From Verrucomicrobiia bacterium (GTDB lineage Bacteria; Verrucomicrobiota; Verrucomicrobiia; Palsa-1439), in assembly GCA_037441425.1 (NCBI GenBank), contig JBBISF010000004.1, forward strand, positions 10,215 to 74,214: DNA of 64,000 bases. The letters run 5' to 3'. Positions within the stretch are counted from its first letter, which is position 1; each line of letters starts with the position of its first letter. This document shows positions 21,902 through 32,692 of this stretch, piece after piece. The position numbers and the translations under genes were made by a program. Under the pieces are notes generated by a model. That model did no database searches and was not told the origin of the DNA. It saw only the letters and a program-made list of their open reading frames with translations.

Positions 21902-22909
21902 CTATTTCTGGCCCGGTTTCCGCAAGATACGCTCGCCGCTGCCGGCTGCGGGCGGTTTACCCAAGACGCGATCTTTTTGTTGGCGTGGACCGGAGATGAG
22001 CTGTCGTTCGCCGGCAGCCGCAGGCGGCGCTTGTTTGATGGTTTGTTCGCCGGCGGGCGCGGGCGCAGTGGCAATCGGCTTGTCCTCGGCGACCGGTGCT
22101 GCTGGCTCGGGAACAGGCGCGGGTGGCGGCGGAGGCGGTGGGGCGACGACAACCGGTTCGGGCGCAGGTGGCGGTGGCGGCGGAGGCGGAGGAGGGGGCG
22201 GTGGTGGGGCGACGATGACAGGTGCCGGCGGTGGTGGTGGCGGTGCGACCGGTGCCGGTGGTGGAGTGGGCGCGGCAGGTGCCGGAGTTTCGTGTTTGAG
22301 GAGTTTCCGGAGCGCGCCGGTGGTGCGACTAATCGGACTGCTGGGCGGTGGCGGTTCGGCTCCGGGCAGGCGGACGAAGCTGCGTTTGACGGTCGGTTGT
22401 GGTGCGGCCGGGCGTTGCGCGATAGGCGCCGGCGCGACGGGTTTGGGTGCGCCCAAGCGGGGAATCGGGGGACGCACAGGCGCGGGTGGTTCGGGAGGTG
22501 GCGGCGGTGGAGGAACCTCTTGAGCGACCGGCGCGGGTTCGGGTGGCGGCGGCGCGACGGGAGTAACCGGTTGTGGAGCCGGGACGGCAACCGGCACTTG
22601 GGGTTGCGGTGGCGTTTGGACTTCGGGCAGATAGACCAGCATGAAGATGCCCATGTGAATCTGGTCACCGCTCTTCAGGGGATGAACCGTGATGGGGAGG
22701 CCGTTGACGAAGGTGCCGTTGGTGGCGTGCAGATCAACCAGCTTGTGCTCGTCGTCTTCGGTGACAATGATCGCGTGGTGCTTGGAGACGCTGCGGTCGT
22801 TGAGATGGATGGTGTTGTCGGGCGCGCGGCCAATGGAGCAGATGGTGCCGCTAAGATCGTGAGCGCGAGGTTGCGGCAGCCCCGCCAAAATGTGGAGTTT
22901 TGCCTTCAT
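21902..22909 (-). CDS. FHA-domain protein with long polyproline/PAPV-rich C-terminal tail
   Basis: N-terminal FHA fold (GRAPDNTIHLNDRSVSKHHAII...TNGTFVNG). ~220-aa Pro-rich tail including a run of 14 Pro. Start set at the ATG at 22909 (alternative 22924), because the longer ORF overlaps the tRNA-Gly. Confidence 0.7.
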   Translation of the reverse strand: MKAKLHILAGLPQPRAHDLSGTICSIGRAPDNTIHLNDRSVSKHHAIIVTEDDEHKLVDLHATNGTFVNGLPITVHPLKSGDQIHMGIFMLVYLPEVQTPPQPQVPVAVPAPQPVTPVAPPPPEPAPVAQEVPPPPPPPEPPAPVRPPIPRLGAPKPVAPAPIAQRPAAPQPTVKRSFVRLPGAEPPPPSSPISRTTGALRKLLKHETPAPAAPTPPPAPVAPPPPPPAPVIVAPPPPPPPPPPPPPPAPEPVVVAPPPPPPPAPVPEPAAPVAEDKPIATAPAPAGEQTIKQAPPAAAGERQLISGPRQQKDRVLGKPPAAGSGERILRKPGQK

Positions 22910-23403
22910 TTCGCATTCCACCATAACAACACCCCGGGATGCTTGCAAACTCAAAGCGGGTGATGAGTGGGCGCAGCTTGACGCTGCCACCATAATGGAG
23001 GTGGGAACGGTTTCCCACCCACGGCTCACGAACACCCCACCGTGGGAGGCCCATGGAACCATCTCGCTCACTGTGGGAATTGGAAGAGGAGGTGCTGGCA
23101 GGTGCGCCAGCGTGGTCTCGGCTGGGGCCGTCGGAAACCCAAACCGGCGCGCGGAAATCGAACAGGTTACGCTCCGCCTCCAAAAGTTTCTCGATTCGTT
23201 TCTCGACGCATCATTGACCGCAATGACTACACCGCCGAGAAGGCGAAATTGATGAGGCGGAAGAAGATATTGGAGGAACAAAAAGCCGCCTGCGCAGCAG
23301 GCCGGGCCGATTGGCTCGAACCTTGTCCTCGACTGTAAAAAAGCCCGTGGTTCTTGCGTGAAACCGTGGTCACTACTTCTCGAAAACTCGTCGAGTTGCG
23401 TGG

Positions 23404-23477
23404 TGGAGCGGGCGATGGGAATCGAACCCACCTCACCAGCTTGGAAGGCTGGCGCATTACCACTATGCTACGCCCGC
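23404..23477 (-). tRNA. tRNA-Gly (anticodon UCC)
   Basis: Manual fold: acceptor GCGGGCG/CGCCCGC, D arm GCAT/ATGC, anticodon stem CCAGC/GCTGG with loop CTTCCAA, T arm GTGGG-TTCGATT-CCCAT, discriminator U, encoded CCA. Confidence 0.8.
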
Positions 23478-23566
23478 ATCCTTGGCGCGACGTGCGCAAG
23501 CTACATCACGCCGCCCACAAGCGTCAAGACGGGAAACCGCTTGTGCCCGCGGTGTTCCGGTTGTAC

Positions 23567-25237
23567 ATGTTACGAGCAATGGCGATGCGCATGATCCGGT
23601 GTTGGCTTTTGTTCGGCCTGCTCGCGTGGGGCTTGACCGACGCGGTCCACGCCCAGACTTCCGGCACCGGGTTCGTCGTCAACGAACACGGCTACATCGT
23701 CACCTGCGCCCACGTCATCCGCAACGGGCGCAAAATCGAAGTCGTGCTCGGTGACCGGGTGTACGACGCCACCGTGGTGGAAGCGGATCAAATCTTCGAC
23801 CTCGCCCTGTTGCGCGTCAACGCCGATAACTTGATCCCGCTGCCGTTGATTGATTCCGACCGGGTAGAGGTCGGCGAAGAAGTGCGCGCGTTCGGATTTC
23901 CGTTGGCGACAATGCTGGGTGACAGCGTCAAGATCACGCGCGGCACAATTTCCGGCATTGAGACCAGAGACACGTACAAATACTTTCAGGTGGATGCCGT
24001 GCTCAATCCCGGCAACAGCGGCGGCCCGTTGGTGGACGACCGCGGCCAGGTCGTGGCCATCAACAACGCCAAGCTGAGCGGCCCGGCGGTCAGCGGCATT
24101 GGGTTGGCCGTGCCGATCAACTACATCAAGGATTTGTTGCGTCGGCAAGACGTGTCGTTTTCCACCGTGGCGGTGCCCCCGCGCATGGAAGGCCCCATGC
24201 TCGTGCGGAAAGTGTCGCCCTCGGTCGCGCTGATCAACGTCACGATGCGCGCGGCGGCGGTGAACACCGGCGCGCCAACCGCCACGCCGATTCCACCGCC
24301 CGAACCGCTGGAGTTGGTGCCGACGATGGCGAAGTATAACCGGCTGGTCTATAGCCTCGCGTTTGCGCCGGACGGCAAGGTGCTTGCCAGCGGCGCCGGT
24401 GACGGTTTGGTGGGCATCTGGGATGCCCATACCGGCGAACTGAAGCGGCCGCTCATCATTCACAAAGGCGCGGTTACTTCCGTTGCCTTTGCGAAGGACG
24501 GTCAATGGCTGGCCAGCGGCAGCTTGGACAAAACCATTCAACTCTGGGACGCCCACACCGGCGAATTGCGGCGCACAATGGCGTGGAACTCCGGTCCCGT
24601 GTACGCCATCGCCCCTTCGCCGGATGGAGAAACCTTGGCGGCGGCGACGGGGCGGCCGGGGGAAGCCGGTTTCATTCGACTCTGGGAAGTGAAGACCGGC
24701 AAGGTCCGCCGCAATCTCACTGGCCATCGCGCCGAAGTGACGGCGGTCGCGTATTCGCCCGACGGCAAGTTCCTCGCCAGCGCGAGCAAAGACAAAACCA
24801 TCCGCCTCTGGGACGGTGACACCGGCAAACTCCTGCGCATTCTCAAAGGACATTTCGACGAGGTGTATGCGCTTGCGTTTTCACCGGATGGCCGGTGGCT
24901 CGCCAGCGCCGGCAAGGATTACACGGTGCGACTTTGGGATCCCGAGACCGGCGGGAACAAACACACGTTCACCGGCCAACTCGATGAAGTGGATGCGGTC
25001 GCGTTCTCGCCCGATGGCAAAACGCTGGCCAGCGGCAGTCTCGACAACACGATCAAATTCTGGGATGTGGCCACCGGCAAATTAGAGCGCACACTCGACG
25101 GTCCGGGTGAAGGCGTGGTGGCGCTGGCGTATGCGCCCGACGGCAAGACACTCGCCGTTGCCGGCAAGAACAAGACGCTCAAGCTCTACGATCTCACGGC
25201 ACCGGCAGGGGAGGCGGCTGCCCAGCCGGCCCCTTAA
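23567..25237 (+). CDS. Secreted trypsin-like serine protease (S1C/HtrA-like) fused to a 7-bladed WD40 beta-propeller
   Basis: Signal peptide MRMIRCWLLFGLLAWGLTDAVHA. Catalytic triad context TCAHV...D...GNSGGPL. Seven WD repeats (GxVLASGxxDxTIxLWD). The ORF track starts at TTG 23354 inside the tRNA, so the start was moved to an in-frame ATG (23567/23579/23585). Confidence 0.8.
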   Translation: MLRAMAMRMIRCWLLFGLLAWGLTDAVHAQTSGTGFVVNEHGYIVTCAHVIRNGRKIEVVLGDRVYDATVVEADQIFDLALLRVNADNLIPLPLIDSDRVEVGEEVRAFGFPLATMLGDSVKITRGTISGIETRDTYKYFQVDAVLNPGNSGGPLVDDRGQVVAINNAKLSGPAVSGIGLAVPINYIKDLLRRQDVSFSTVAVPPRMEGPMLVRKVSPSVALINVTMRAAAVNTGAPTATPIPPPEPLELVPTMAKYNRLVYSLAFAPDGKVLASGAGDGLVGIWDAHTGELKRPLIIHKGAVTSVAFAKDGQWLASGSLDKTIQLWDAHTGELRRTMAWNSGPVYAIAPSPDGETLAAATGRPGEAGFIRLWEVKTGKVRRNLTGHRAEVTAVAYSPDGKFLASASKDKTIRLWDGDTGKLLRILKGHFDEVYALAFSPDGRWLASAGKDYTVRLWDPETGGNKHTFTGQLDEVDAVAFSPDGKTLASGSLDNTIKFWDVATGKLERTLDGPGEGVVALAYAPDGKTLAVAGKNKTLKLYDLTAPAGEAAAQPAP

Positions 25238-27728
25238 ATTTTTCCACGCCCAGTTGCCCCAGCGCCGTTGCCGCCGCAAAACGCACATCCCAAAATTCGT
25301 CGTGCAACACCGGTAGTAGCCGGGGGATTGCGCGCCGGTCACCGATTCGGCCCAGCGTTTGCGCGGCGCGGAGACGAATCAACTCCCGGTCATCGCGCAA
25401 GAAACGGATGGCAGGTCCGAAGGCGGCGTGGGCGCGCAGATGGCCCAGCGTGTAAAGCGCGGTGGTCTGGGTCTTCTCCCGGTGGAGCAGGGGCAGGATG
25501 ACCGGAATGGCGTTCGTGGCCGACTCAAATCGGGCGAGGAAATAACAGCACACCCGCGCCGCTTCGTCATCGGGCGCGTGACGAACACCGTCGATTAGTG
25601 CCGGGACCGCATTTGTTCCCAGGTAATCAATCAGCGCTTCCGCCTTCACCTGCACCATGACGTCGGGGCTGTCCATGCGTGTCAACCAGTAGGGAAGCAC
25701 TTCCAAGCCGCGGCGTTTCAATTCAGCCCACGCCTGATCGGCGTCGGCGTGATCGGAGATCGCGACGCGGATCAGGTGTTCGAGGGGATTGTGGACATCC
25801 ACGTGCCGGGTGTGAATGTGGACGCGCCCTTCCGAGCGTGATCCCCATAAGAGCAACGGCACCGGTCGCGCCGGGAAGGGCGCGCCCCCGTGCGGCGTTG
25901 CTTCCGTATCAATGCCGCAGCCATACCACGGTTTTACCCAGACGGTGTTGTTCGTCTGGCCTTGCGAGTACGTGTCTTGGCCGGCGAGGTCGAGCAGCAC
26001 GGCGATTGAACCGTATTCCCGTTTGTCGCCGTCTTGGCCAGCGGCTTGCGATTGTTTCGGGTCTTTGCCGATGTACACATCGTTACCGGCGTGATCGAGC
26101 AGCAGCGCGAAGGAGTTGTAGAGCGCCGCGCCTTGGGCCGTGGTGTCGCCTTCGTAATGGTCATTGCCGGCACGGTCAATCAGGATGCCCACCGAGTAGT
26201 CGTGGGCCGCGCCTTGGCAGATGTGACCGGCGGTGTAGGTGTCGTTGCCGCTCCAGTCAATCAGCGCGCCACTGCTGAGATGGATGCCGGCGCCCTGACA
26301 ATATTGATAGGCTTGATAGGTGTCATTTCCCGCCGCATCAAGAAGCAACCCAAGCGAATACCAGTAGCTGGCCCCTTGTCCGTACACGTCGGCGACGTAA
26401 TGATCGTCGCCCTGCAAATCGCACAAGATGCCGACGCCGCCGCCGGCAAACGGGCGCAGCCCATAGCCGAATCCTTGGGAGAGGGTGAACCTGTGCCCCG
26501 GCAACCACGGACACGGTTGGTTGCCGGTGGCGACGTACGAGTCGTTGCCCTCCACATCCAGCAATAACCCCACGCCACTCGTGCCGCCATATCCTTGCGA
26601 TTCCGCCGTTGCCCGGTAAGACGTATCGCCACCGCGCTGCCACAGAATGCCGGCGCCGAAAGTTGCCGCGCCTTGGGCATGTGTGTCCGCCACGAACTTG
26701 TCGCGCCCGCCGCCGTCCACCAGCATTCCGCAGCCGAAGAACCCGGCGCCCTGCGACAGATGTTTGGCTTCGTAAACGTCATCGCCACCGCAGTCTACCA
26801 GAATGCCGATGCCGAAAATACCGGCGCCTTGAGAGTAACTCTTGCGCGAGATGTATTGATCATTGCCGGCCAGATCGATGACGATCGAAATCGGTCGCCC
26901 TTCTAATCCATTCGCGCCGCCGGCGGAGTTCTCGTACACATCGTCGCCGCCGAGGTCGATGATCAGAAAGGCTTCCTCCTTGTACACGTTCCGGCCCACG
27001 CCACCGATGATGATCTTCCCGAGCGGGGTGTCAGTCGAGACCTCGAATTCTTCCGTGTAGTGATGCTGGCGCAGTTCCCGGACGGCTTCGTCCACGGCGC
27101 GCGTCAGTTCCGCGAACGCCTGAAAGAGGTGGGCGTGATTCAACCGGTTGCTGGCGGCGAGGATGAGATTGACCGGTTCGTCGTCTTGGAATTCCAGATT
27201 CTTGTCGCGCCGCAGGAGATCGGGATCAATGCCGGCCTTGTCGGCGTCGTCTTGGACAGTCTGGAGCAGGAAAGCTTCGAAGGCTGGTTTGTCGGGCTTC
27301 GGCAGGAGCGGCCGGACGCGGAGGGCGGCATCGTAGATCAATTGCACCGCGGAAGCGACACCCGGCGGAACAGCCGGCAGGTGTAACGGGTGGGTTGGCG
27401 GTTGCCAGTGCGGATGCGCGCCAGTCAACGCCGTGACGATGTCCGTGAGATTGGTGGCGCGGCTCAGCTTCGCGCGTACCTCGTCGGCAACGACCGACAG
27501 TGTGAGCGGTTCTTGCAGGGTCATGCGCACGACCGGCAGGATGAGGTTGGACTCGGCATTGGTTTTGGAAAAGGACAAATCGTGCGGCGTCATCTTCAAG
27601 GTGCGCAGCGCTTGTGCGAGATAGTACTCGTCGGTGGCGTCAAAGGCCGGCGGGATTTCACCGCCACGACATAGCGGGCACAGAGCTAGGAGTGCCGCGC
27701 CGAGGAGGAATAGTGGTCGTCGGTTCAT
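25194..27728 (-). CDS. Secreted 844-aa protein: ~12 tandem ~26-aa Gly/Asp-rich beta-solenoid-type repeats plus C-terminal PBS-lyase HEAT-like repeats
   Basis: Signal peptide MNRRPLFLLGAALLALCPLCRG. Repeats of consensus [LIV]-D-x-x-G-[ND]-D-x-Y-x(6)-Q-G-A-x(5)-G-[IL]-L. C-terminal AIPRLLPVLHD...VRxAAAxALGQLG HEAT units. Confidence 0.7.
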   Translation of the reverse strand: MNRRPLFLLGAALLALCPLCRGGEIPPAFDATDEYYLAQALRTLKMTPHDLSFSKTNAESNLILPVVRMTLQEPLTLSVVADEVRAKLSRATNLTDIVTALTGAHPHWQPPTHPLHLPAVPPGVASAVQLIYDAALRVRPLLPKPDKPAFEAFLLQTVQDDADKAGIDPDLLRRDKNLEFQDDEPVNLILAASNRLNHAHLFQAFAELTRAVDEAVRELRQHHYTEEFEVSTDTPLGKIIIGGVGRNVYKEEAFLIIDLGGDDVYENSAGGANGLEGRPISIVIDLAGNDQYISRKSYSQGAGIFGIGILVDCGGDDVYEAKHLSQGAGFFGCGMLVDGGGRDKFVADTHAQGAATFGAGILWQRGGDTSYRATAESQGYGGTSGVGLLLDVEGNDSYVATGNQPCPWLPGHRFTLSQGFGYGLRPFAGGGVGILCDLQGDDHYVADVYGQGASYWYSLGLLLDAAGNDTYQAYQYCQGAGIHLSSGALIDWSGNDTYTAGHICQGAAHDYSVGILIDRAGNDHYEGDTTAQGAALYNSFALLLDHAGNDVYIGKDPKQSQAAGQDGDKREYGSIAVLLDLAGQDTYSQGQTNNTVWVKPWYGCGIDTEATPHGGAPFPARPVPLLLWGSRSEGRVHIHTRHVDVHNPLEHLIRVAISDHADADQAWAELKRRGLEVLPYWLTRMDSPDVMVQVKAEALIDYLGTNAVPALIDGVRHAPDDEAARVCCYFLARFESATNAIPVILPLLHREKTQTTALYTLGHLRAHAAFGPAIRFLRDDRELIRLRAAQTLGRIGDRRAIPRLLPVLHDEFWDVRFAAATALGQLGVEKFKGPAGQPPPLPVP

Positions 27729-27803
27729 GGATCAGCGGTATTGGAATAACCGCGAAGCTCCCAAAAGCCAAGCCGCCAGCTTGTCGTTGATTTCGTCCAG
27801 TGA

Positions 27804-28685
27804 TCAACCGCCGGTTTCGAAGCCGGGGTAGAGCGTCATGCCGCCGTCAATGTAGATGTTGGTGCCGGTAATGTAATCAGCATAATCGCTCGCCAGCCAG
27901 ACGGCGGCTTGGCCAATGTCTTCCGGTTCGCCGATGCGTTTGTAGGGAACGAGCTTCATCAGGTTTTTGTAGGCTTCGGGAGTGTCCCAAGCGGCGGTGT
28001 TAATTGGGGTCCGGATCGCGCCGGGGCAGATGCTCAGGACGCGGATGCGGAACGGGGCGACTTCTTGGGCGATGCTTTTCATCATCATCATGACGCCGCC
28101 TTTCGAGGCCGCGTAGTTGACGTGGCCGGCCCACGGAATGACATCGTGCACCGAACTGATGCAGATGATCTTGCCGGCGGCGCAGGAGATTTCCTTCTTG
28201 ATGCCGCGGCGCTTGAACTCGCGTACCGCTTCGCGCGCACAGAGGAACTGGCCGGTCAGATTCGTGCCGATGACCTTGTTCCATTTGTCGAGGGTCATCT
28301 CCTCGAACCGGGAATCGCTTTGGAGGCCGGCGTTATTGATGAGAATATCAATCGTGCCAAATTCCTGGCACATCTTGGCGAACATCGCTTGCACCTCGGC
28401 TTCCTTGGAGACGTCGGCTTGATGCGCGTAGCACCGGCTCCCGCTCTGGCTGGCGGCGGCCACGACTTCATCTGCGGCAGCCGGGTTCGCGTAGTAGTTG
28501 ACCACCACGTCCGCGCCGGCTTCGCCGAGGGCGATGGCGACGGCTTTGCCGATGCCGCTGTTGGCGCCAGTGACCAGCGCTTTTTGGCCTTTGAGAATTT
28601 TGACGGTTGGGCAAGCCGGCAGGACGACGCTCGGCAACTGATCCATCTCCACATCGCGGACGAACTGACTCATGGTCGTAGCCAT
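27804..28685 (-). CDS. SDR-family NAD(P)-dependent oxidoreductase (glucose 1-dehydrogenase-like)
   Basis: TGANSGIGKA glycine-rich loop, NNAG, catalytic YAASK. Start at ATG 28685, preceded by AAGGAG. Confidence 0.8.
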   Translation of the reverse strand: MATTMSQFVRDVEMDQLPSVVLPACPTVKILKGQKALVTGANSGIGKAVAIALGEAGADVVVNYYANPAAADEVVAAASQSGSRCYAHQADVSKEAEVQAMFAKMCQEFGTIDILINNAGLQSDSRFEEMTLDKWNKVIGTNLTGQFLCAREAVREFKRRGIKKEISCAAGKIICISSVHDVIPWAGHVNYAASKGGVMMMMKSIAQEVAPFRIRVLSICPGAIRTPINTAAWDTPEAYKNLMKLVPYKRIGEPEDIGQAAVWLASDYADYITGTNIYIDGGMTLYPGFETGG

Positions 28686-28765
28686 GGATGATTTCTCCTT
28701 TTTAGTTAAGGGCTTGAGAAGCGTGACGACTCGCCGGACTTGGACAGCGCCAGGCTCCGGAAGGT

Positions 28766-29293
28766 TCACTGCGGGGGCGACGGCGTCTTTTCGAACGTCA
28801 ACGCCGCGGAGTTGATGCAGTAGCGCAGGCCGGTCGGTTGGGGGCCGTCGTCAAACACGTGCCCCAGATGCGCGCCGCACCGCCGACACAAGATTTCGGT
28901 GCGGTGCATGCCGAAGGAATTGTCGGGTCGGCGCTCGATGTTGTCCTCGGCTGCCGGCTGAAAGAAACTGGGCCAGCCCGTGCCGGATGCGAATTTGGCG
29001 GCGGATTTGAACAACACGGTTCCGCAACACACGCAGCGGTAAAGACCGTTCTCGTGGTTGTTCCAATAGCCGGACGAACACTGGCGTTCCGTCCCCGCCT
29101 GACGCGTGACCCGGTACTGTTCGGGGGTGAGTTGTTGGCGCCATTCGGCGTCGGTCTTGACGATCTTCTCCACGGTGACGACTCCTTTCCGGACACCGGC
29201 ATCGGTGAACTCAACGATTTTTACTTTCTGCGCGAATGAACCGGTCGTGCCCAGAAGGGCGCTCCCACAAATTAGTGCGAAGCAAATCTTCAT
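28766..29293 (-). CDS. msrB: Peptide methionine-R-sulfoxide reductase MsrB (secreted)
   Basis: SelR domain with CxxC...CxxC zinc site and the RYCINSAAL motif. Signal peptide. Confidence 0.85.
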
Positions 29294-29865
29294 TCCGTCA
29301 CCACATGGCAACTTGGCAAGTCATGCTTGTGGAAATAATCCTGATGATATTCTTCCGCCCGCCAAAATTGCTGCGCGGGCACAATCGCGGTGACGATGGG
29401 CCGGTGGAACTTGCCGGACTTGTCGAGGCGGTCTTTCACCGCGCGCGCGATCTTCTCCTGTTCCGGCGTGTGGTAGAAGATGACCGACCGGTATTGCGTG
29501 CCGACATCCGGGCCTTGCCGGTTGAGGGTCGTTGGGTTGTGAAGTTTGAAGAAGTACTCGACCACCTTTTCGTAGCTGACCACGGACGGATCGAACGTGA
29601 TCTGGCACACCTCGGCGTGTCCGGTGCGATCCGTGCACACCTGTTGGTACGTCGGATTCTTCAGATTCCCGCCCATGTAACCAACCACGGTCGAGGTGAC
29701 GCCCCGCAGTTGCTGAAACGCGGACTCCACGCCCCAGAAACAACCCGCGGCAAATGTCGCTTTTTCCATTGGAGGTTCTCCTTGCGCGCTAAACGCCGTC
29801 ACCGCGCCGACGCCGAGCAGGCAGCACCACGATCGCAATCTGTCAGCCATCGCGGTATGTGTCAT
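29290..29865 (-). CDS. msrA: Peptide methionine-S-sulfoxide reductase MsrA (secreted)
   Basis: GCFWG active-site motif. 4-nt overlap with msrB. Confidence 0.85.
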
Positions 29866-29920
29866 CCGGATTCCAGCGGTTGTCAAATGGCGACCGCGCA
29901 CTTGCGCGGGCGCCGCGGGA

Positions 29921-32692
29921 ATGGTATCGGTGAGCAGCGATGGGCCGGTTCTTCAGGCAATACACATGATCTCCGAACTTATACGTCTCAACGAAGACGC
30001 GCGGCGCGAGAAAAACTGGAAGCGGTGGGGACCGTACCTTGCGGAGCGCCAGTGGGGCACGGTGCGCGAAGATTATTCGGAGTGGGGGAATTGCTGGGAT
30101 TATTTTCCGCATGATCAGGCACGCAGTCGTGCTTACCGTTGGGGCGAAGATGGCTTGCTCGGCATCACCGACCGCGAATGCCGGCTGTGTTTGGCCCTCG
30201 CCTTGTGGAACGGCAAGGATCCGATTTTGAAGGAGCGGTTGTTTGGATTGACCGGCCCCGAAGGTAATCACGGCGAGGACGTGAAGGAGTGTTATTACTA
30301 CCTCGATTCAACGCCGACGCACTCCTACCTGAAGGCGCTCTACAAATATCCGCAGGCGGCCTACCCCTATACCCGGTTGGTGGACGAGAACCGCCGCCGG
30401 GGCCGGGGTGACCCGGAATTTGAACTGCTTGATACCGGGGTGTTCGACGACAACCGGTACTTCGATGTCGTTGCCGAATATGCCAAAGCCTCGCCTGATG
30501 ACATCTTGATGCGCATCACGGTCGCCAATCGCGGGGCGGCGAAGGCGACGATCCATTTATTGCCGACGTTGTGGTACCGGAACACGTGGGTGTGGGGCTG
30601 CAAGCACGAAGGCTGCTGGATCCGGCCGACGCTGGAACTGCAGAACGACGGCACGGTCGTTGGCAGCCATGTTGGTTTCGGCAAACATGTGTTTGTGGCG
30701 GACGGCGCGCCGCAGTGGTTGTTCACCGAAAACGAAACCAACACCCAAAAACTGTTCGGCACCGATAACTGGACGAAGTTCTCCAAAGACGCATTCCATG
30801 ACTACGTTATCGGCGGCAAGACCGCCGCGGTGAACCCCAAGCGGACCGGCACCAAGGTGGCGGCGTATTACCAGTTCGAGATACCCGCCGGGCAGGAAGT
30901 TGTTGTGAAGGCGCGCTTGTCGGCTGTAGCCGTGGGCGATGACCGCGGCGGATCGAAGGGGATGCCGCGCTCAGCGAGCGCGGCGACAGGTTTGGGCAAA
31001 GACTTCGACCAAATTTTCGCCGACCGGATCCGCGAAGCCGATGAGTTCTACGCGGCGAGACTGCCGGCCAACTTGAGCGCCGAGGAAAGGCGTGTCGCCC
31101 GGCAGGGCTATGCCGGGTTGCTCTGGTCGAAACAGTTTTATCACTACATCGTCCGTGACTGGCTCGACGGCGATCCGCAGCAACCACCGCCGCCGGAAAG
31201 TCGGAAGCATGGGCGCAACAGTGACTGGCCGCATCTCTACAACCGCGATGTGATTTCGATGCCGGACAAGTGGGAGTATCCGTGGTACGCCGCGTGGGAC
31301 TTGGCGTTCCACATGATCCCGTTCGCGAAGGTGGATCCGCAATTTGCCAAGGAGCAGCTCGTCCTCTTCCTGCGCGAGTGGTACCTGCACCCGAACGGGC
31401 AATTGCCGGCCTACGAGTTTGCGTTCGGCGACGTGAATCCGCCCGTCCACGCGTGGTCGTGCTGGCGCGTTTATAAGATGACCGCGCCACCAGGGAAGCG
31501 CGACCGGGAGTTTTTGTCGCGCACGTTTCAAAAGCTTATCATCAACTTCACCTGGTGGGTCAACCGCAAGGATGCCGGGGGCCGGAACATCTTCGGCGGC
31601 GGCTTTCTCGGTCTGGATAACATCGGCGTATTCGACCGCTCAAAGCCGTTGCCCACCGGCGGGCATCTGGAACAGGCGGACGGCACGGCGTGGATGGCGT
31701 TTTTCTGCAACACGATGCTCGCCATGGCGCTGGAATTGGCGCGCGACAATCCGGCCACGGAAGACATGGCTTCAAAATTCTTCGAGCATTTCGTGGCCAT
31801 CGCCGATGCGATCAACACGCTGGGCGGCACCGGCTTGTGGGACGAAGAAGACGGGTTTTACTACGACCAACTGCACGTGGACGGCCAGGTGATTCCGCTC
31901 CGGGTGCGGTCGCTGGTTGGGTTGCTGCCGTTGATTGCGGTGGAAGTGTTGGAGGAAGAGATCATCGCCAAGCTGCCCGGCTTTCGCAAACGGATGAACT
32001 GGTTTCTCGAACACCGGAAAGACCTCGCCCAGCACATCGCGTACATGGAAACCGAAGGCGCGGAGGCGCAACACGGTCACCGCTTGCTGGCCATTCCCTG
32101 CCGCGACCGACTGGAGCGCGTGTTGCGCTACCTGCTCGACGAAAACGAGTTTCTGTCACCGTATGGCATCCGCTCGGTTTCCAAGTATCACGCGCAACAT
32201 CCGTACGTCCTGCCGGTGAACGGCCAGGAATTTCGGGTGGACTACGAGCCGGGGGAATCCGCAACCGGCCTTTTCGGCGGCAACTCCAACTGGCGCGGCC
32301 CGATCTGGTTTCCGATCAACTACCTGCTCGTCGAAGCGCTGGAGCGCTACCATCATTTCTACGGCGATGCGCTGAAAACCGAATGCCCCACCGGTTCCGG
32401 CAATTGGCTGAACCTCCAACAGGTTGCTGATGAATTGCGTGCCCGGCTGGCGCGCATCTTCCTGCCGGATGCCCAAGGCCGTCGCCCCTGCCACGGCGAC
32501 GAACCCCGGTACGTCAGCGACCCATACTGGAAAGACCTCGCCTTGTTCTACGAGTACTTCCACGGCGAGACCGGTCGTGGCGTCGGGGCGAGCCACCAAA
32601 CCGGCTGGACCGCGCTCGCAACGCGTTGCATCGAGGACGCGGCAACGGCTGGCGATGCGCGAGCGGGATGCCGGCGATGTTATCCGTTTTGA
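29921..32692 (+). CDS. GH63-like (alpha/alpha)6-barrel glucosidase family protein
   Basis: 923 aa. WEYPWYAAWDLAFH and surrounding motifs are typical of GH63/MGH-like glucosidases. Confidence 0.5.
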   Translation: MVSVSSDGPVLQAIHMISELIRLNEDARREKNWKRWGPYLAERQWGTVREDYSEWGNCWDYFPHDQARSRAYRWGEDGLLGITDRECRLCLALALWNGKDPILKERLFGLTGPEGNHGEDVKECYYYLDSTPTHSYLKALYKYPQAAYPYTRLVDENRRRGRGDPEFELLDTGVFDDNRYFDVVAEYAKASPDDILMRITVANRGAAKATIHLLPTLWYRNTWVWGCKHEGCWIRPTLELQNDGTVVGSHVGFGKHVFVADGAPQWLFTENETNTQKLFGTDNWTKFSKDAFHDYVIGGKTAAVNPKRTGTKVAAYYQFEIPAGQEVVVKARLSAVAVGDDRGGSKGMPRSASAATGLGKDFDQIFADRIREADEFYAARLPANLSAEERRVARQGYAGLLWSKQFYHYIVRDWLDGDPQQPPPPESRKHGRNSDWPHLYNRDVISMPDKWEYPWYAAWDLAFHMIPFAKVDPQFAKEQLVLFLREWYLHPNGQLPAYEFAFGDVNPPVHAWSCWRVYKMTAPPGKRDREFLSRTFQKLIINFTWWVNRKDAGGRNIFGGGFLGLDNIGVFDRSKPLPTGGHLEQADGTAWMAFFCNTMLAMALELARDNPATEDMASKFFEHFVAIADAINTLGGTGLWDEEDGFYYDQLHVDGQVIPLRVRSLVGLLPLIAVEVLEEEIIAKLPGFRKRMNWFLEHRKDLAQHIAYMETEGAEAQHGHRLLAIPCRDRLERVLRYLLDENEFLSPYGIRSVSKYHAQHPYVLPVNGQEFRVDYEPGESATGLFGGNSNWRGPIWFPINYLLVEALERYHHFYGDALKTECPTGSGNWLNLQQVADELRARLARIFLPDAQGRRPCHGDEPRYVSDPYWKDLALFYEYFHGETGRGVGASHQTGWTALATRCIEDAATAGDARAGCRRCYPF

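Follow-up and report, generated by a model that had tools for sequence, protein, structure and literature searches.

The minus-strand gene at 25194..27728 of the window, a 64,000-nucleotide stretch of DNA from a Verrucomicrobiia bacterium, encodes an 844-aa protein whose central beta-solenoid belongs to a large bacterial family that spans many phyla and has neither database annotation nor a solved relative. Since solenoid and HEAT repeats are encoded elsewhere by adjacent separate genes, the protein is, judged from sequence, a fusion of a conserved pair. We consider it somewhat probable that Ca2+ staples the coils of this protein, which would act in the envelope through a ligand-binding or catalytic site, with HEAT as partner.

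Gene, modules and repeat

The reading frame starts with ATG and is exactly the one given by an earlier sequence-only reading of this DNA. A gene call made independently on a public contig reproduces both the 844-aa product and its 44-nt overlap with the convergent gene. From N- to C-terminus the protein consists of a Sec-type signal peptide, a helical N-domain, the solenoid, a linker predicted to be disordered, and HEAT repeats of the PBS type (Table 1). Signal peptides were judged by a hand heuristic based on the pattern of n-, h- and c-regions. In the target, a positive n-region with RR precedes the hydrophobic h-region PLFLLGAALLAL and a c-region, C-R-G before GE, with small residues at -1/-3. 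Similar N-termini occur in orthologues (LRA before ETPPALD, AAA before ELPP), and among 148 representatives from many phyla 122 have one; by this pattern the protein is predicted to be exported, as had been claimed earlier, and the route to be of Sec type. The N-domain carries a motif near its start, A-L-x-x-L-x-M-x-x-x-D-L-x-F-x-K, that is kept across phyla, and its occupancy in the representatives is about 0.8-0.9; it has no relative in Pfam or PDB.

Table 1. Features of the target gene and its neighbours (window positions)
Feature	Position	Strand	Evidence
Signal peptide, Sec-type, aa 1-22, MNRRPLFLLGAALLALCPLCRG before GE	27663..27728	-	heuristic, by hand
N-terminal all-helical domain, aa ~30-220	27069..27641	-	AF2 helices H31-220
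Beta-solenoid, 13 coils of ~27 aa, aa 229-608	25905..27044	-	periodicity, AF2
Coil 7 insertion loop, aa 401-431, Q418-G-F-G-Y-G-x-R425-P-x-A-G-G-G	26436..26528	-	conservation
Coils 8-11, polar/aromatic patch Y455, W456, Y476, H483, H509, D510, N538	26115..26384	-	conservation
Coil 12 insertion loop, aa 556-573, G564-x-x-G-x-x-R570-E-Y-G-S	26010..26063	-	conservation
Linker, poorly conserved, predicted disordered, aa 609-647	25788..25904	-	pLDDT, occupancy
PBS-lyase-type HEAT domain, aa 648-827, shorter than family norm	25248..25787	-	Pfam, PDB, AF2
Non-homologous 17-aa tail (VEKFKGPAGQPPPLPVP) and stop	25194..25247	-	family homology ends at aa ~827
SDR, glucose-1-dehydrogenase-like, upstream	27804..28769, probable start 28685	-	adh_short_C2 E=1.6e-63
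msrB	28766..29311	-	SelR E=3e-52; signal-peptide-like N-terminus
msrA	29290..29901	-	PMSR E=3e-67; signal-peptide-like N-terminus
Convergent exported trypsin-like protease, 7-bladed WD40	23354..25237	+	Trypsin_2 E=5e-32, WD40 E=9e-75

The full AF2 model (pLDDT 79.6, pTM 0.79) places helices at 30-220, strands at 229-600 and HEAT helices at 648-825, and the solenoid modelled alone reaches pLDDT 75.6. The central region is modelled as a beta-solenoid with a strand-turn-strand pattern, which bears out the fold guessed from the letters. BLOSUM autocorrelation of aa 239-610, compared with 500 shuffles, is greatest at lag 27 (z=10.8), with further peaks at lag 54 (z=5.6) and lag 26 (z=5.1). The repeat and the count of about 12 proposed by the sequence-only reading hold, with 12 to 13 coils, and its period of 26 is corrected to 27. 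Of the 13 coils (aa 240-608), 12 contain the anchor L-[ILV]-D-x-x-G-[ND]-D-x-Y, mostly together with a Q-G corner. Coil spacings are 27/27/26/26/27 and then four times 27, two coils bear insertions (46 and 36 aa), and the composition is rich in G (18%), A (9.9%) and D (9.1%). No tandem repeat was found at the DNA level under the coils, which indicates that they are ancient.

A multi-phylum family with a conserved patch

Counted as clusters at 50% identity, the solenoid family has 3866 representatives at E<=1e-3, and the stricter cutoff of E<=1e-30 leaves 1884. It extends over more than 10 phyla and was found in Verrucomicrobiota, Kiritimatiellae, Planctomycetota, Latescibacterota, WOR-3 and Ignavibacteria, as well as in Calditrichota, Zixibacteria, Thermoanaerobaculia, Thermotogota and Caldipriscus. 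Coil number is nearly fixed (median 12, IQR 11-12) and alignment occupancy is >=0.9 over aa 241-600. Pooled over 12 coils of 150 sequences, the turn consensus is D 0.93, G 0.99, [ND] 0.74, D 0.98 and Y 0.95, and that of the Q-G corner Q 0.77 and G 0.89. The motif is lost from coils 4-5 in 45 of 51 close Verrucomicrobial orthologues; some of the sites are therefore dispensable, a point against Ca2+ stapling.

The repeat had been described as unassignable to a known family, and it remained so: the solenoid matched nothing in Pfam, NCBIfam or PADLOC even at E<=10, nothing among PDB sequences with two profiles, and nothing in PDB by Foldseek at E<=1e-3. The HemolysinCabind model (PF00353) was not matched, nor in the Pfam search were NosD, PbH1 and SBBP, the families put forward earlier as candidates; Peptidase_M10_C gave a marginal match (E=0.09) in one of 14 sequences.

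Conservation is concentrated in a near-invariant patch formed by R425, Y455, W456, Y476, H483, H509, D510, N538 and R570. These residues are 86-99% conserved across phyla, and those on coils 8-11 are 100% conserved in Verrucomicrobial orthologues. W456, H483 and D510 occupy one shared repeat position on successive coils in the sequence register. In the coil 7 loop Q418, G419, G423, R425, G430 and G431 are 97-99% conserved (149 representatives), and the loop is probably flexible because its pLDDT is low; in the coil 12 loop, where pLDDT is also low, G564 and R570 are at least 87-91% conserved. A Cys pair specific to Verrucomicrobia, C477/C504, lies in register on adjacent coils and would be compatible with a periplasmic disulfide.

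The Gly/Asp/Ala-rich composition of the region, in a genome whose GC content is about 61%, is what a low-complexity or compositional artefact, or a frame that is no real gene, might look like. This explanation is refuted by homologues that number in the thousands, run full length and are conserved position by position, by the confident AF2 fold, by the strength of the periodicity and by the concurring gene call, and we give it practically no weight.

The HEAT partner and the 3' end

The C-terminal 180 aa score above Pfam thresholds (HEAT_2 E=3e-15, 56.7 bits against a cutoff of 27.7; HEAT_PBS E=5e-8) and match alphaRep/HEAT entries in PDB, with about 28-30% identity to alphaRep, so the HEAT tail reported earlier as fused to the solenoid is genuine. 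It resembles the PBS-lyase-type HEAT proteins CpcE/F, NblB, MTH187 and the alphaRep designs; what sets it apart is its predicted export and its coupling to a beta-solenoid. The target is not a bilin lyase, as its NCBIfam equivalog scores lie far under the cutoffs (NblB 35.6 against 300; CpcE 19.9 against 330).

In distant phyla solenoid and HEAT are encoded by separate genes, which lie next to or overlap each other in at least 12 loci, and both products have signal-peptide-like N-termini by the same heuristic. An exported HEAT module had been called odd; it is no one-off, with an adjacent signal-peptide-bearing partner gene in many phyla. The gene boundary of the split relatives falls at the position of the linker, which has pLDDT <50 at aa 600-633 and alignment occupancy of 0.2-0.5.

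Relatives extend a median of 70 residues beyond aa ~827, and no remnant of the missing ~70 HEAT residues was found in the window. The sequence comparison indicates that a 3' truncation took ~70 aa of HEAT from the target. The 3' end of the protease-WD40 gene abuts the truncation point, and positions 25194-25237 are antisense to it. The 44-nt overlap noted in the sequence-only reading is real in both sets of gene calls, and it is a product of this truncation rather than a designed feature.

Fold likeness, function and genomic neighbourhood

The best Foldseek match of the solenoid model is 3P4G, a Ca2+-dependent beta-helical antifreeze protein (prob 0.92, TM 0.38/0.48, E=0.12), followed by RTX block V. 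The 3P4G domain, region IV of the Marinomonas primoryensis adhesin MpAFP/MpIBP, has 13 RTX-like 19-aa repeats in a Ca2+-bound right-handed beta-helix containing the peptide IDAGTGNDEIY, and its folding depends on Ca2+ (PMC3492233). The target resembles it in having one G-N-D turn per coil on one solenoid edge (LLDAAGNDTY in the target), in its 12-13 coils and in a predicted extracytoplasmic location; Ca2+-dependent folding, known for 3P4G, would be shared. The coils, however, have 27 aa rather than 19, there is no detectable sequence homology, TM is below 0.5, and a Sec-exported protein of 600-900 aa contrasts with a 1.5-MDa T1SS adhesin. The target lacks the Thr/Asx ice-binding ladder, and 3P4G lacks the Q-G corner, the His/Asp patch and the HEAT partner. 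RTX beta-rolls (PF00353; adenylate cyclase toxin block V, serralysin C-terminal domain), which are also weak Foldseek matches, share a G-x-D-x-[hydrophobic/aromatic] turn after a Gly-rich stretch and acidic residues stacked between coils, and folding only after export into a Ca2+ compartment would fit the target too. They differ in the nonapeptide GGxGxDxUx, which gives each 18-aa coil two Ca2+ turns against one turn in each 27-aa coil of the target, in a C-terminal T1SS signal against an N-terminal Sec signal, and in the first Gly, which is Asp in the target turn. The likeness to Ca2+ solenoids in general, based on a short turn motif and the Foldseek E-value, and to the 3P4G fold in particular, based on a model, is a weak one.

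The protein might instead be non-catalytic and have a structural or adhesive role, as a rigid, Ca2+-stiffened rod of the periplasm or surface; it would keep envelope layers apart, anchor them or attach to a surface, with HEAT as protein-protein anchor. In favour are the adhesin domain as nearest fold, the fixed length of the solenoid, a HEAT partner of the kind typical of scaffolds and the failure to find a conserved enzymatic neighbourhood; RTX adhesins and the ice-binding domain of MpAFP offer parallels. Adhesin repeats, however, usually vary in copy number and have no coil-specific invariant His, Asp, Arg or Trp, whereas the target combines a fixed coil number with a localised patch 86-99% conserved across phyla; a ladder like that of an ice-binding site, a T1SS-type C-terminus and an anchoring domain are all absent. 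We regard a mere rod as possible but rather doubtful.

A periplasmic metalloprotein or metallochaperone, with H483, H509 and D510 binding a transition metal for catalysis or delivery, appears unlikely. These residues, near-invariant on neighbouring coils, could form a 2-His-1-carboxylate set, the protein is predicted to be exported, and Verrucomicrobia add in-register Cys beside the Gln corner; there is a loose analogy with NosD (beta-helix) or gamma-carbonic anhydrase, with the acidic turns as extra cation sites. Yet NosD and Beta_helix models were unmatched, gamma-carbonic anhydrase and SufD were Foldseek noise (prob <=0.02), and metal-trafficking genes were absent near every locus examined.

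Under the reading we prefer, the Ca2+-stapled envelope protein, three modules would act after Sec export: the helical N-domain, a fixed-length solenoid of ~12 coils and the PBS-type HEAT domain. One RTX-like turn (D-x-x-G-[ND]-D-x-Y) per 27-residue coil, once stacked, would align 24 near-invariant carboxylates, and the most likely reason for such a row is a column of ~12 Ca2+ on the turns that staples the coils together. The chain may stay unfolded in the low-Ca2+ cytoplasm, pass through the Sec channel and fold in the periplasm. The Gln-Gly corner would form a second structural ladder, and on coils 7-12 the two flexible loops and the near-invariant patch may make up a ligand-binding or catalytic site, whose ligand would most plausibly be a polymer that is exported or belongs to the envelope, for instance a glycan. 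HEAT, fused to the solenoid here and carried by the neighbouring gene in other lineages, is an obligate partner and probably serves as a scaffold or docking arm.

A similar arrangement is seen in right-handed beta-helix proteins of envelope and exopolysaccharide systems (pectate-lyase-like/CASH: AlgG, NosD, PbH1), periplasmic solenoids with coils of 22-27 aa whose functional residues sit on a few coils in the middle, with loops on either side. AlgG acts together with the alpha-solenoid protein AlgK, a pairing that parallels solenoid and HEAT in the target. The Beta_helix, NosD, Pectate_lyase and PbH1 models were nevertheless unmatched even at E<=10, pectate lyases and polygalacturonase gave Foldseek noise only, and the D-x-x-G-x-D-x-Y and Q-G signatures are foreign to these families.

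The sequence-only reading had placed the target at the end of an msrA-msrB-SDR operon and given it a periplasmic or surface role in oxidative-damage repair or binding, here taken as acting on Met-oxidised proteins. All four genes are on the minus strand and either overlap or are separated by short gaps (75 nt between SDR and target), a layout compatible with co-transcription, and MsrA and MsrB have signal-peptide-like N-termini. One relative (L004) has the order MsrA-MsrB-small Moco oxidoreductase-target, and a Moco (Oxidored_molyb) gene lies directly upstream in nine relatives. Against this, among 80 related loci MsrB is nearby in three and MsrA adjacent in one, an SDR orthologue is beside the target relative in none, and distant-phylum loci showed no Msr linkage. 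The SDR, called as 293 aa (27804..28685), has no signal peptide at its inspected N-terminus, and the conserved residues are unlike Msr or thioredoxin chemistry, Cys being lineage-specific. Immediate neighbours differ even among close relatives (upstream: IOR-like, Moco, Zn-ADH and others), and the protease-WD40 gene is beside the target relatives in none of the 80 loci. The operon context is not kept, and a repair role looks quite improbable.

Besides HEAT, the only cross-phylum conserved neighbour is a cytoplasmic RNase_H_2-like gene with HDOD in FCB lineages, which is uninformative on glycans. The mixed character of the neighbourhoods and the ubiquity of GT2 genes speak against a glycan ligand. 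GT2 genes occur in five distant loci, a flippase and, with DUF6259, a sugar-binding protein were also met, and close relatives have GH63/GH13 nearby, a gene content that hints faintly at a glycan-related context.

Repeat architecture and predicted fold

The gene begins with ATG and, as the sequence-only reading described, encodes a protein of 844 aa. That reading also proposed a regular 26-residue repeat; the regularity held, and the period is 27, as BLOSUM autocorrelation over aa 239-610 peaked at lags of 27 (z=10.8), 54 (z=5.6) and 26 (z=5.1) relative to 500 shuffles. By reading, the solenoid comprises 13 coils, the first of which is degenerate while the remaining 12 show the anchor [LIV]-[LIV]-D-x-x-G-[ND]-D-x-Y. 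In most coils a Q-G-A-G corner lies about 9 residues past the anchor, and the following anchor is preceded by a G-x-L run. Nine coils measure 26-27 aa, and insertions bring coil 7 to 46 aa and coil 12 to 36 aa. The repeat region consists of 18% Gly, 9.9% Ala and 9.1% Asp. No tandem repeat was found in the gene at the DNA level, and the coils are therefore ancient and diverged. No second copy of the gene was found within the window.

AlphaFold2 (AF2) bore out the early guess of a beta-solenoid, both in a model of the whole protein (52-sequence alignment, mean pLDDT 79.6, pTM 0.79) and in a model of the solenoid only (aa 225-612, pLDDT 75.6, pTM 0.78). The N-terminus, MNRRPLFLLGAALLALCPLCRG followed by GE at a signal-peptidase I site, has the n/h/c organization of a Sec signal peptide, and the N-termini of orthologues are of the same kind, ending in LRA before ETPPALD or in AAA before ELPP. 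A Sec-type signal peptide is thus predicted, by a reasoned heuristic, from the n/h/c pattern and the orthologues. A lipoprotein was rejected, as there is no lipobox and the L-A-L-C sequence has Leu at -1.

Coordinates of the solenoid-HEAT protein, its predicted domains and the neighboring features in the window
Feature	Position	Strand	Basis or remark
Solenoid-HEAT gene	25194-27728	-	
N-domain helices	aa 30-220		AF2
Solenoid, unbroken strand-turn-strand	aa 229-600		AF2
Disordered linker	aa 600-645		AF2, pLDDT <50
HEAT helices	aa 648-825		AF2
FHA-domain protein	21902-23431	-	FHA E=1.4e-18
Protease-WD40 gene	23354-25237	+	mechanical TTG start at 23354
tRNA-Gly(TCC)	23404-23477		
MsrB and MsrA	28766-29901	-	
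GH63/MGH1-like glycoside hydrolase	29921-32692	+	divergent from msrA

The solenoid family and its exported HEAT partner

More than 100 full-length relatives, at 52-63% identity, are found in Verrucomicrobiia MAGs, and their sole annotations there are "HEAT repeat protein" or "hypothetical". Searched exhaustively with HMMER, aa 24-640 retrieved 3866 cluster representatives (50% identity) at E<=1e-3, of which 1884 remain at E<=1e-30; many of these proteins are 600-660 aa long, too short to hold a HEAT tail. A scan of species-representative genomes yielded 80 loci from Verrucomicrobiota, Kiritimatiellae, Planctomycetota, Latescibacterota, WOR-3, Ignavibacteria, Calditrichota, Zixibacteria, Thermoanaerobaculia, Thermotogota and Caldipriscus. 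Stand-alone solenoid members lack precomputed Pfam domains, and each is annotated as "hypothetical protein". We define the family by about 12 coils with the D-x-x-G-x-D-x-Y turn and Q-G corner, a conserved patch, and a HEAT partner that is either fused or encoded by the next gene. Every defining feature is present in the window protein, which fits this two-module family. The domain occurs in about 3900 clusters from more than 10 bacterial phyla, many of them uncultured, and the label "HEAT repeat protein" is misleading; a definition built on the 27-aa coil, the turn and corner, the fixed 12 coils, the invariant patch around His/His/Asp and the obligate exported HEAT partner would open the way to a new family entry and to accurate annotation.

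The C-terminal tail is a member of HEAT_2/HEAT_PBS and the sole part of the protein that belongs to a known family. Pfam scores lie above the gathering threshold for HEAT_2 (E=3e-15, 56.7 bits, cutoff 27.7), HEAT (E=2.5e-8, 33.9 bits, cutoff 23.5) and HEAT_PBS (E=5e-8, 33.0 bits, cutoff 20.9), which, together with the helices modelled by AF2, confirms the tail recognized at first sight. Foldseek aligned it with alphaRep at TMt 0.6-0.7. A bilin lyase or NblB was considered and rejected, since the NCBIfam equivalogs scored far below cutoff (NblB 35.6 vs 300, CpeY 21.5 vs 600, CpcE 19.9 vs 330).

A split arrangement occurs in WOR-3, Calditrichota, Zixibacteria, Thermoanaerobaculia and unclassified lineages, at no fewer than 12 distant loci: a solenoid gene encoding about 550-665 aa has, next to it on the downstream side and in the same orientation, a gene encoding 270-380 aa, and the two frequently overlap by a few bases. 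The second product clusters with the tail of the window protein and is a HEAT_2/HEAT_PBS protein (E=3e-29), in agreement with independent gene calls carrying Pfam labels. Both products of the split pairs have signal-peptide-like N-terminal segments, as do 122 of 148 family representatives. In the window protein, therefore, the two members of a conserved, exported pair are fused into one, and the disordered linker at aa 609-647 marks the fusion junction. The fusion of HEAT repeats to a secreted protein had been noted as odd; the fusion is real, and the oddity disappears, as an exported HEAT protein is a trait of the family. Such fusion and fission provide a ready-made test of interaction between the two modules.

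In an alignment of 149 multi-phylum representatives, aa 241-600 are occupied at 0.9 or more, and the tail (aa 640-844) is present in about 40%. Pooling 12 coils from 150 sequences gave a turn of L 0.72, [ILV], D 0.93, x, x, G 0.99, [ND] 0.74, D 0.98, x, Y 0.95 and a corner of Q 0.77, G 0.89, with a median of 12 turn motifs per protein (IQR 11-12). The solenoid is thus a single integrated domain of fixed length rather than an expandable repeat array. Superimposed on the repeat are coil-specific, near-invariant residues, namely R425, Y455, W456, Y476, H483, H509, D510, N538 and R570, which are kept at 86-99% across phyla and at 100% in the Verrucomicrobial orthologues. R425 sits in the conserved loop of coil 7 and R570 in that of coil 12; in the register of the repeat, W456 (coil 8), H483 (coil 9) and D510 (coil 10) are positional equivalents. 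The fixed coil number, the two conserved flexible loops and this His/His/Asp/Tyr/Trp/Arg/Asn patch on coils 7-12 suggest a putative binding or catalytic site.

Cys 406, 436, 477 and 504 are invariant in Verrucomicrobia alone, and C477 and C504, in register on adjacent coils, are compatible with a disulfide in an oxidizing compartment. The acidic turn of coils 4 and 5 (aa 310-345, nt ~26694-26801) has been lost in 45 of 51 close Verrucomicrobial orthologues, with A-x-x-S-x-C and T-x-x-G-x-Q as replacements; the window protein and a few others retain the ancestral, pan-phylum D-x-x-G-x-D. This loss is a natural experiment on how many of the putative Ca2+ sites are dispensable.

Known solenoid classes and a proposed mechanism

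The repeat, which the sequence-only reading could not assign to a known family, stayed unassigned in profile, PDB sequence and fold searches. Pfam and NCBIfam matched the whole protein through C-terminal HEAT models only, leaving the solenoid unmatched, and Pfam at E<=10 on 14 trimmed solenoids gave isolated noise, with SBBP (0.028) and Peptidase_M10_C (0.09) matched by one sequence apiece. The solenoid likewise went unmatched when PDB sequences were searched with the protein alone, with a narrow profile (A2) and with a multi-phylum profile built from 41 sequences (A3); the matches obtained were to HEAT/alphaRep proteins or were noise on the helical N-domain. Foldseek with the whole model was swamped by HEAT and alphaRep/ARM matches to the tail, which is why the solenoid-only model was built. 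That model found 0 matches in the PDB at E<=1e-3. Its top match was a weak one to 3P4G, the Ca2+-dependent, beta-helical antifreeze region IV of the Marinomonas primoryensis adhesin MpAFP (E=0.12, prob 0.92, TM 0.38/0.48, 15% identity), followed at noise level by TPS domains, SufD, curli CsgA and RTX block V. No relevant literature on a solenoid-plus-HEAT family was found. PADLOC returned nothing for the protein beyond a generic HEAT match, and a role as a defense-system component was rejected on that basis.

NosD, PbH1 and SBBP, which had been put forward as candidate families, did not match. The Beta_helix (PF13229), NosD (PF05048), PbH1/CASH and pectate lyase profiles found nothing even at E<=10, and pectate lyase and polygalacturonase appeared in Foldseek at prob <=0.03. 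An SBBP beta-propeller (PF06739) was rejected, as it matched just the one sequence of 14 and the AF2 fold is a solenoid with no propeller.

The turn resembles those of the RTX nonapeptide (GGxGxDxUx) and of MpAFP. RTX repeats (HemolysinCabind, PF00353), however, have a period of 9 and a coil of 18, in contrast to the period of 27 here, and RTX proteins carry an uncleaved C-terminal type I secretion signal, whereas the window protein has an N-terminal Sec-type signal peptide and a C-terminal HEAT tail. PF00353 did not match the window protein at E<=0.1 or the 14 solenoid sequences at E<=10, and the two solenoid profiles retrieved no RTX proteins from the PDB. MpAFP region IV has been described as thirteen 19-aa RTX-like repeats forming a Ca2+-bound right-handed beta-helix, with the peptide IDAGTGNDEIY (PMC3492233). 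Its 19-residue coil bears a Thr/Asx ice-binding ladder (xGTGND), while the coil of the window protein is 27 aa long and the residue ahead of the invariant Gly, Thr in the MpAFP turn motif (PMC3492233), is G/A/S/E in the family. An ice-binding protein was rejected, as the window protein has no Thr ladder. Membership in the RTX or MpAFP class thus failed because of the wrong period, the lack of a profile match and the different secretion route. We regard the family as a widespread, unannotated beta-solenoid, set apart by its 27-aa coil and by an exported HEAT partner that is obligate.

The likeness of the turns, taken with the only fold match (3P4G, weak), underlies the Ca2+ reading. Every one of the 12 stacked turns has an invariant Gly, two near-invariant Asp and, in most cases, an Asn/Asp, which would place 24 carboxylates in line. 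An array of this kind should be stable only with bound cations, and for this reason we propose one Ca2+ per coil along one edge of the solenoid, with folding finished after Sec export and with the Q-G corner and the post-turn Tyr probably acting as internal ladders. From the invariant D/G/D turn and a weak fold similarity we infer that the turns may hold Ca2+ and that folding may depend on it. By analogy, the protein would resemble the Ca2+-stapled solenoids (RTX beta-rolls and MpAFP region IV) in its proposed working. If it is Ca2+-stapled, it would represent a third such solenoid architecture, besides the RTX beta-roll and the MpAFP helix, and the first to use the Sec pathway.

By analogy with periplasmic beta-helix enzymes that have alpha-solenoid partners, the most plausible ligand would be an envelope glycan. 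We consider it likely that the protein is an exported Ca2+-type solenoid with an obligate HEAT partner, and a glycan-directed binding or enzymatic role is a tentative suggestion that we would not favor at present; the structural and functional readings taken jointly stand at slightly better than even. A bolder proposal, and a rather unlikely one, is that the protein is the first representative of an undescribed class of beta-solenoid enzymes that are Sec-exported and Ca2+-stapled, have a His-His-Asp/Tyr/Arg active site and act on an envelope polymer together with a periplasmic HEAT subunit dedicated to them. If true, PVC, FCB and several deep-branching phyla would share a conserved envelope machine of two components that is wholly unannotated. 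The family merits definition and a structure.

Genomic neighborhood and the 3' end of the gene

In the window, msrA, msrB, an SDR gene and the solenoid-HEAT gene are co-directional, with a gap of 75 nt between the last two, and an operon with a role in oxidative repair had been suggested. When all window neighbors were compared with the 80 loci by tblastn, alongside unbiased clustering of flanking ORFs, MsrB was found nearby in 3 of 80 and MsrA adjacent in 1 of 80, and neither an SDR orthologue nor the protease-WD40 gene was found in any (0/80 each). The linkage is not conserved and the neighbors vary, so the oxidative-repair reading is unsupported and the tempting link to methionine-sulfoxide repair is removed for this window. 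A promoter and terminator scan of 24900-30300 was uninformative.

Among 40 Verrucomicrobial loci the upstream gene varies between an IOR-like TPP enzyme, a small Oxidored_molyb protein (9 loci) and a Zn-dependent glucose dehydrogenase, and an EamA transporter and a GH13 amylase occur downstream. The GH63 gene is upstream in 11 loci (70-79% identity). The GH63, GH13, EamA, IOR-like and Moco neighbors reflect synteny of close relatives only. In Ignavibacteria, Calditrichota and Zixibacteria (FCB) the order solenoid, HEAT, RNase_H_2 (PF13482), HDOD-HD recurs at five loci (L050, L053, L073, L082 and L083), with overlapping stop and start codons in places. RNase_H_2 and HDOD have no signal peptides there, and as a functional lead they were rejected, being conserved in FCB yet cytoplasmic. 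GT2 glycosyltransferases lie nearby in 5 distant loci, a polysaccharide flippase in one, and a sugar-binding protein with DUF6259 in two Latescibacterota loci, giving the neighborhood a weak glycan flavor.

The 44-nt overlap with the convergent protease-WD40 gene, reported earlier, is present and appears identically, with the same gene call, in a public contig. Family homology extends as far as aa ~827 (nt ~25250), which is 13 nt away from where the convergent gene ends (25237). Relatives run on by a median of 70 residues, roughly two further HEAT repeats; the window protein instead closes with 17 unrelated residues, antisense over the 3' end of its neighbor (25194-25250), and no remnant of the missing HEAT tail was found in the window. 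The protease-WD40 gene fills the interval between tRNA-Gly and the truncation point, which suggests a local insertion or rearrangement beside the tRNA. Because homology stops at the convergent-gene boundary and the neighbor is absent from all related loci, the best account of the overlap is that a local rearrangement trimmed the 3' end and produced it incidentally.

The convergent gene encodes an exported trypsin-like protease (HtrA-type catalytic domain) joined to a 7-blade WD40 propeller. Its mechanical start overlaps tRNA-Gly, and the true start is probably near MRMIRCWLLFGLLAWGLTDAVHA, followed by Q, at about aa 78. PADLOC gave it generic matches to protease and WD40 only. MsrB and MsrA have signal-peptide-like N-termini, with predicted cleavage before Q and QGE respectively, which implies that both methionine sulfoxide reductases are located in the periplasm; the adjacent ORFs that were examined included no obvious Trx or DsbD-like partner to supply reductant. 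The Oxidored_molyb protein (sulfite-oxidase family, ~212 aa) lies directly upstream on the same strand at loci L002, L003, L004, L006, L008, L010, L018, L038 and L040. At L004 (6292-7953) it comes after MsrA-MsrB, the position held by the SDR in the window, an arrangement that suggests a sulfoxide-reductase-themed cluster. The FHA-domain protein of the window has a very long Pro-rich C-terminal region, and because of its composition the DNA contains long spurious ORFs in several other frames.
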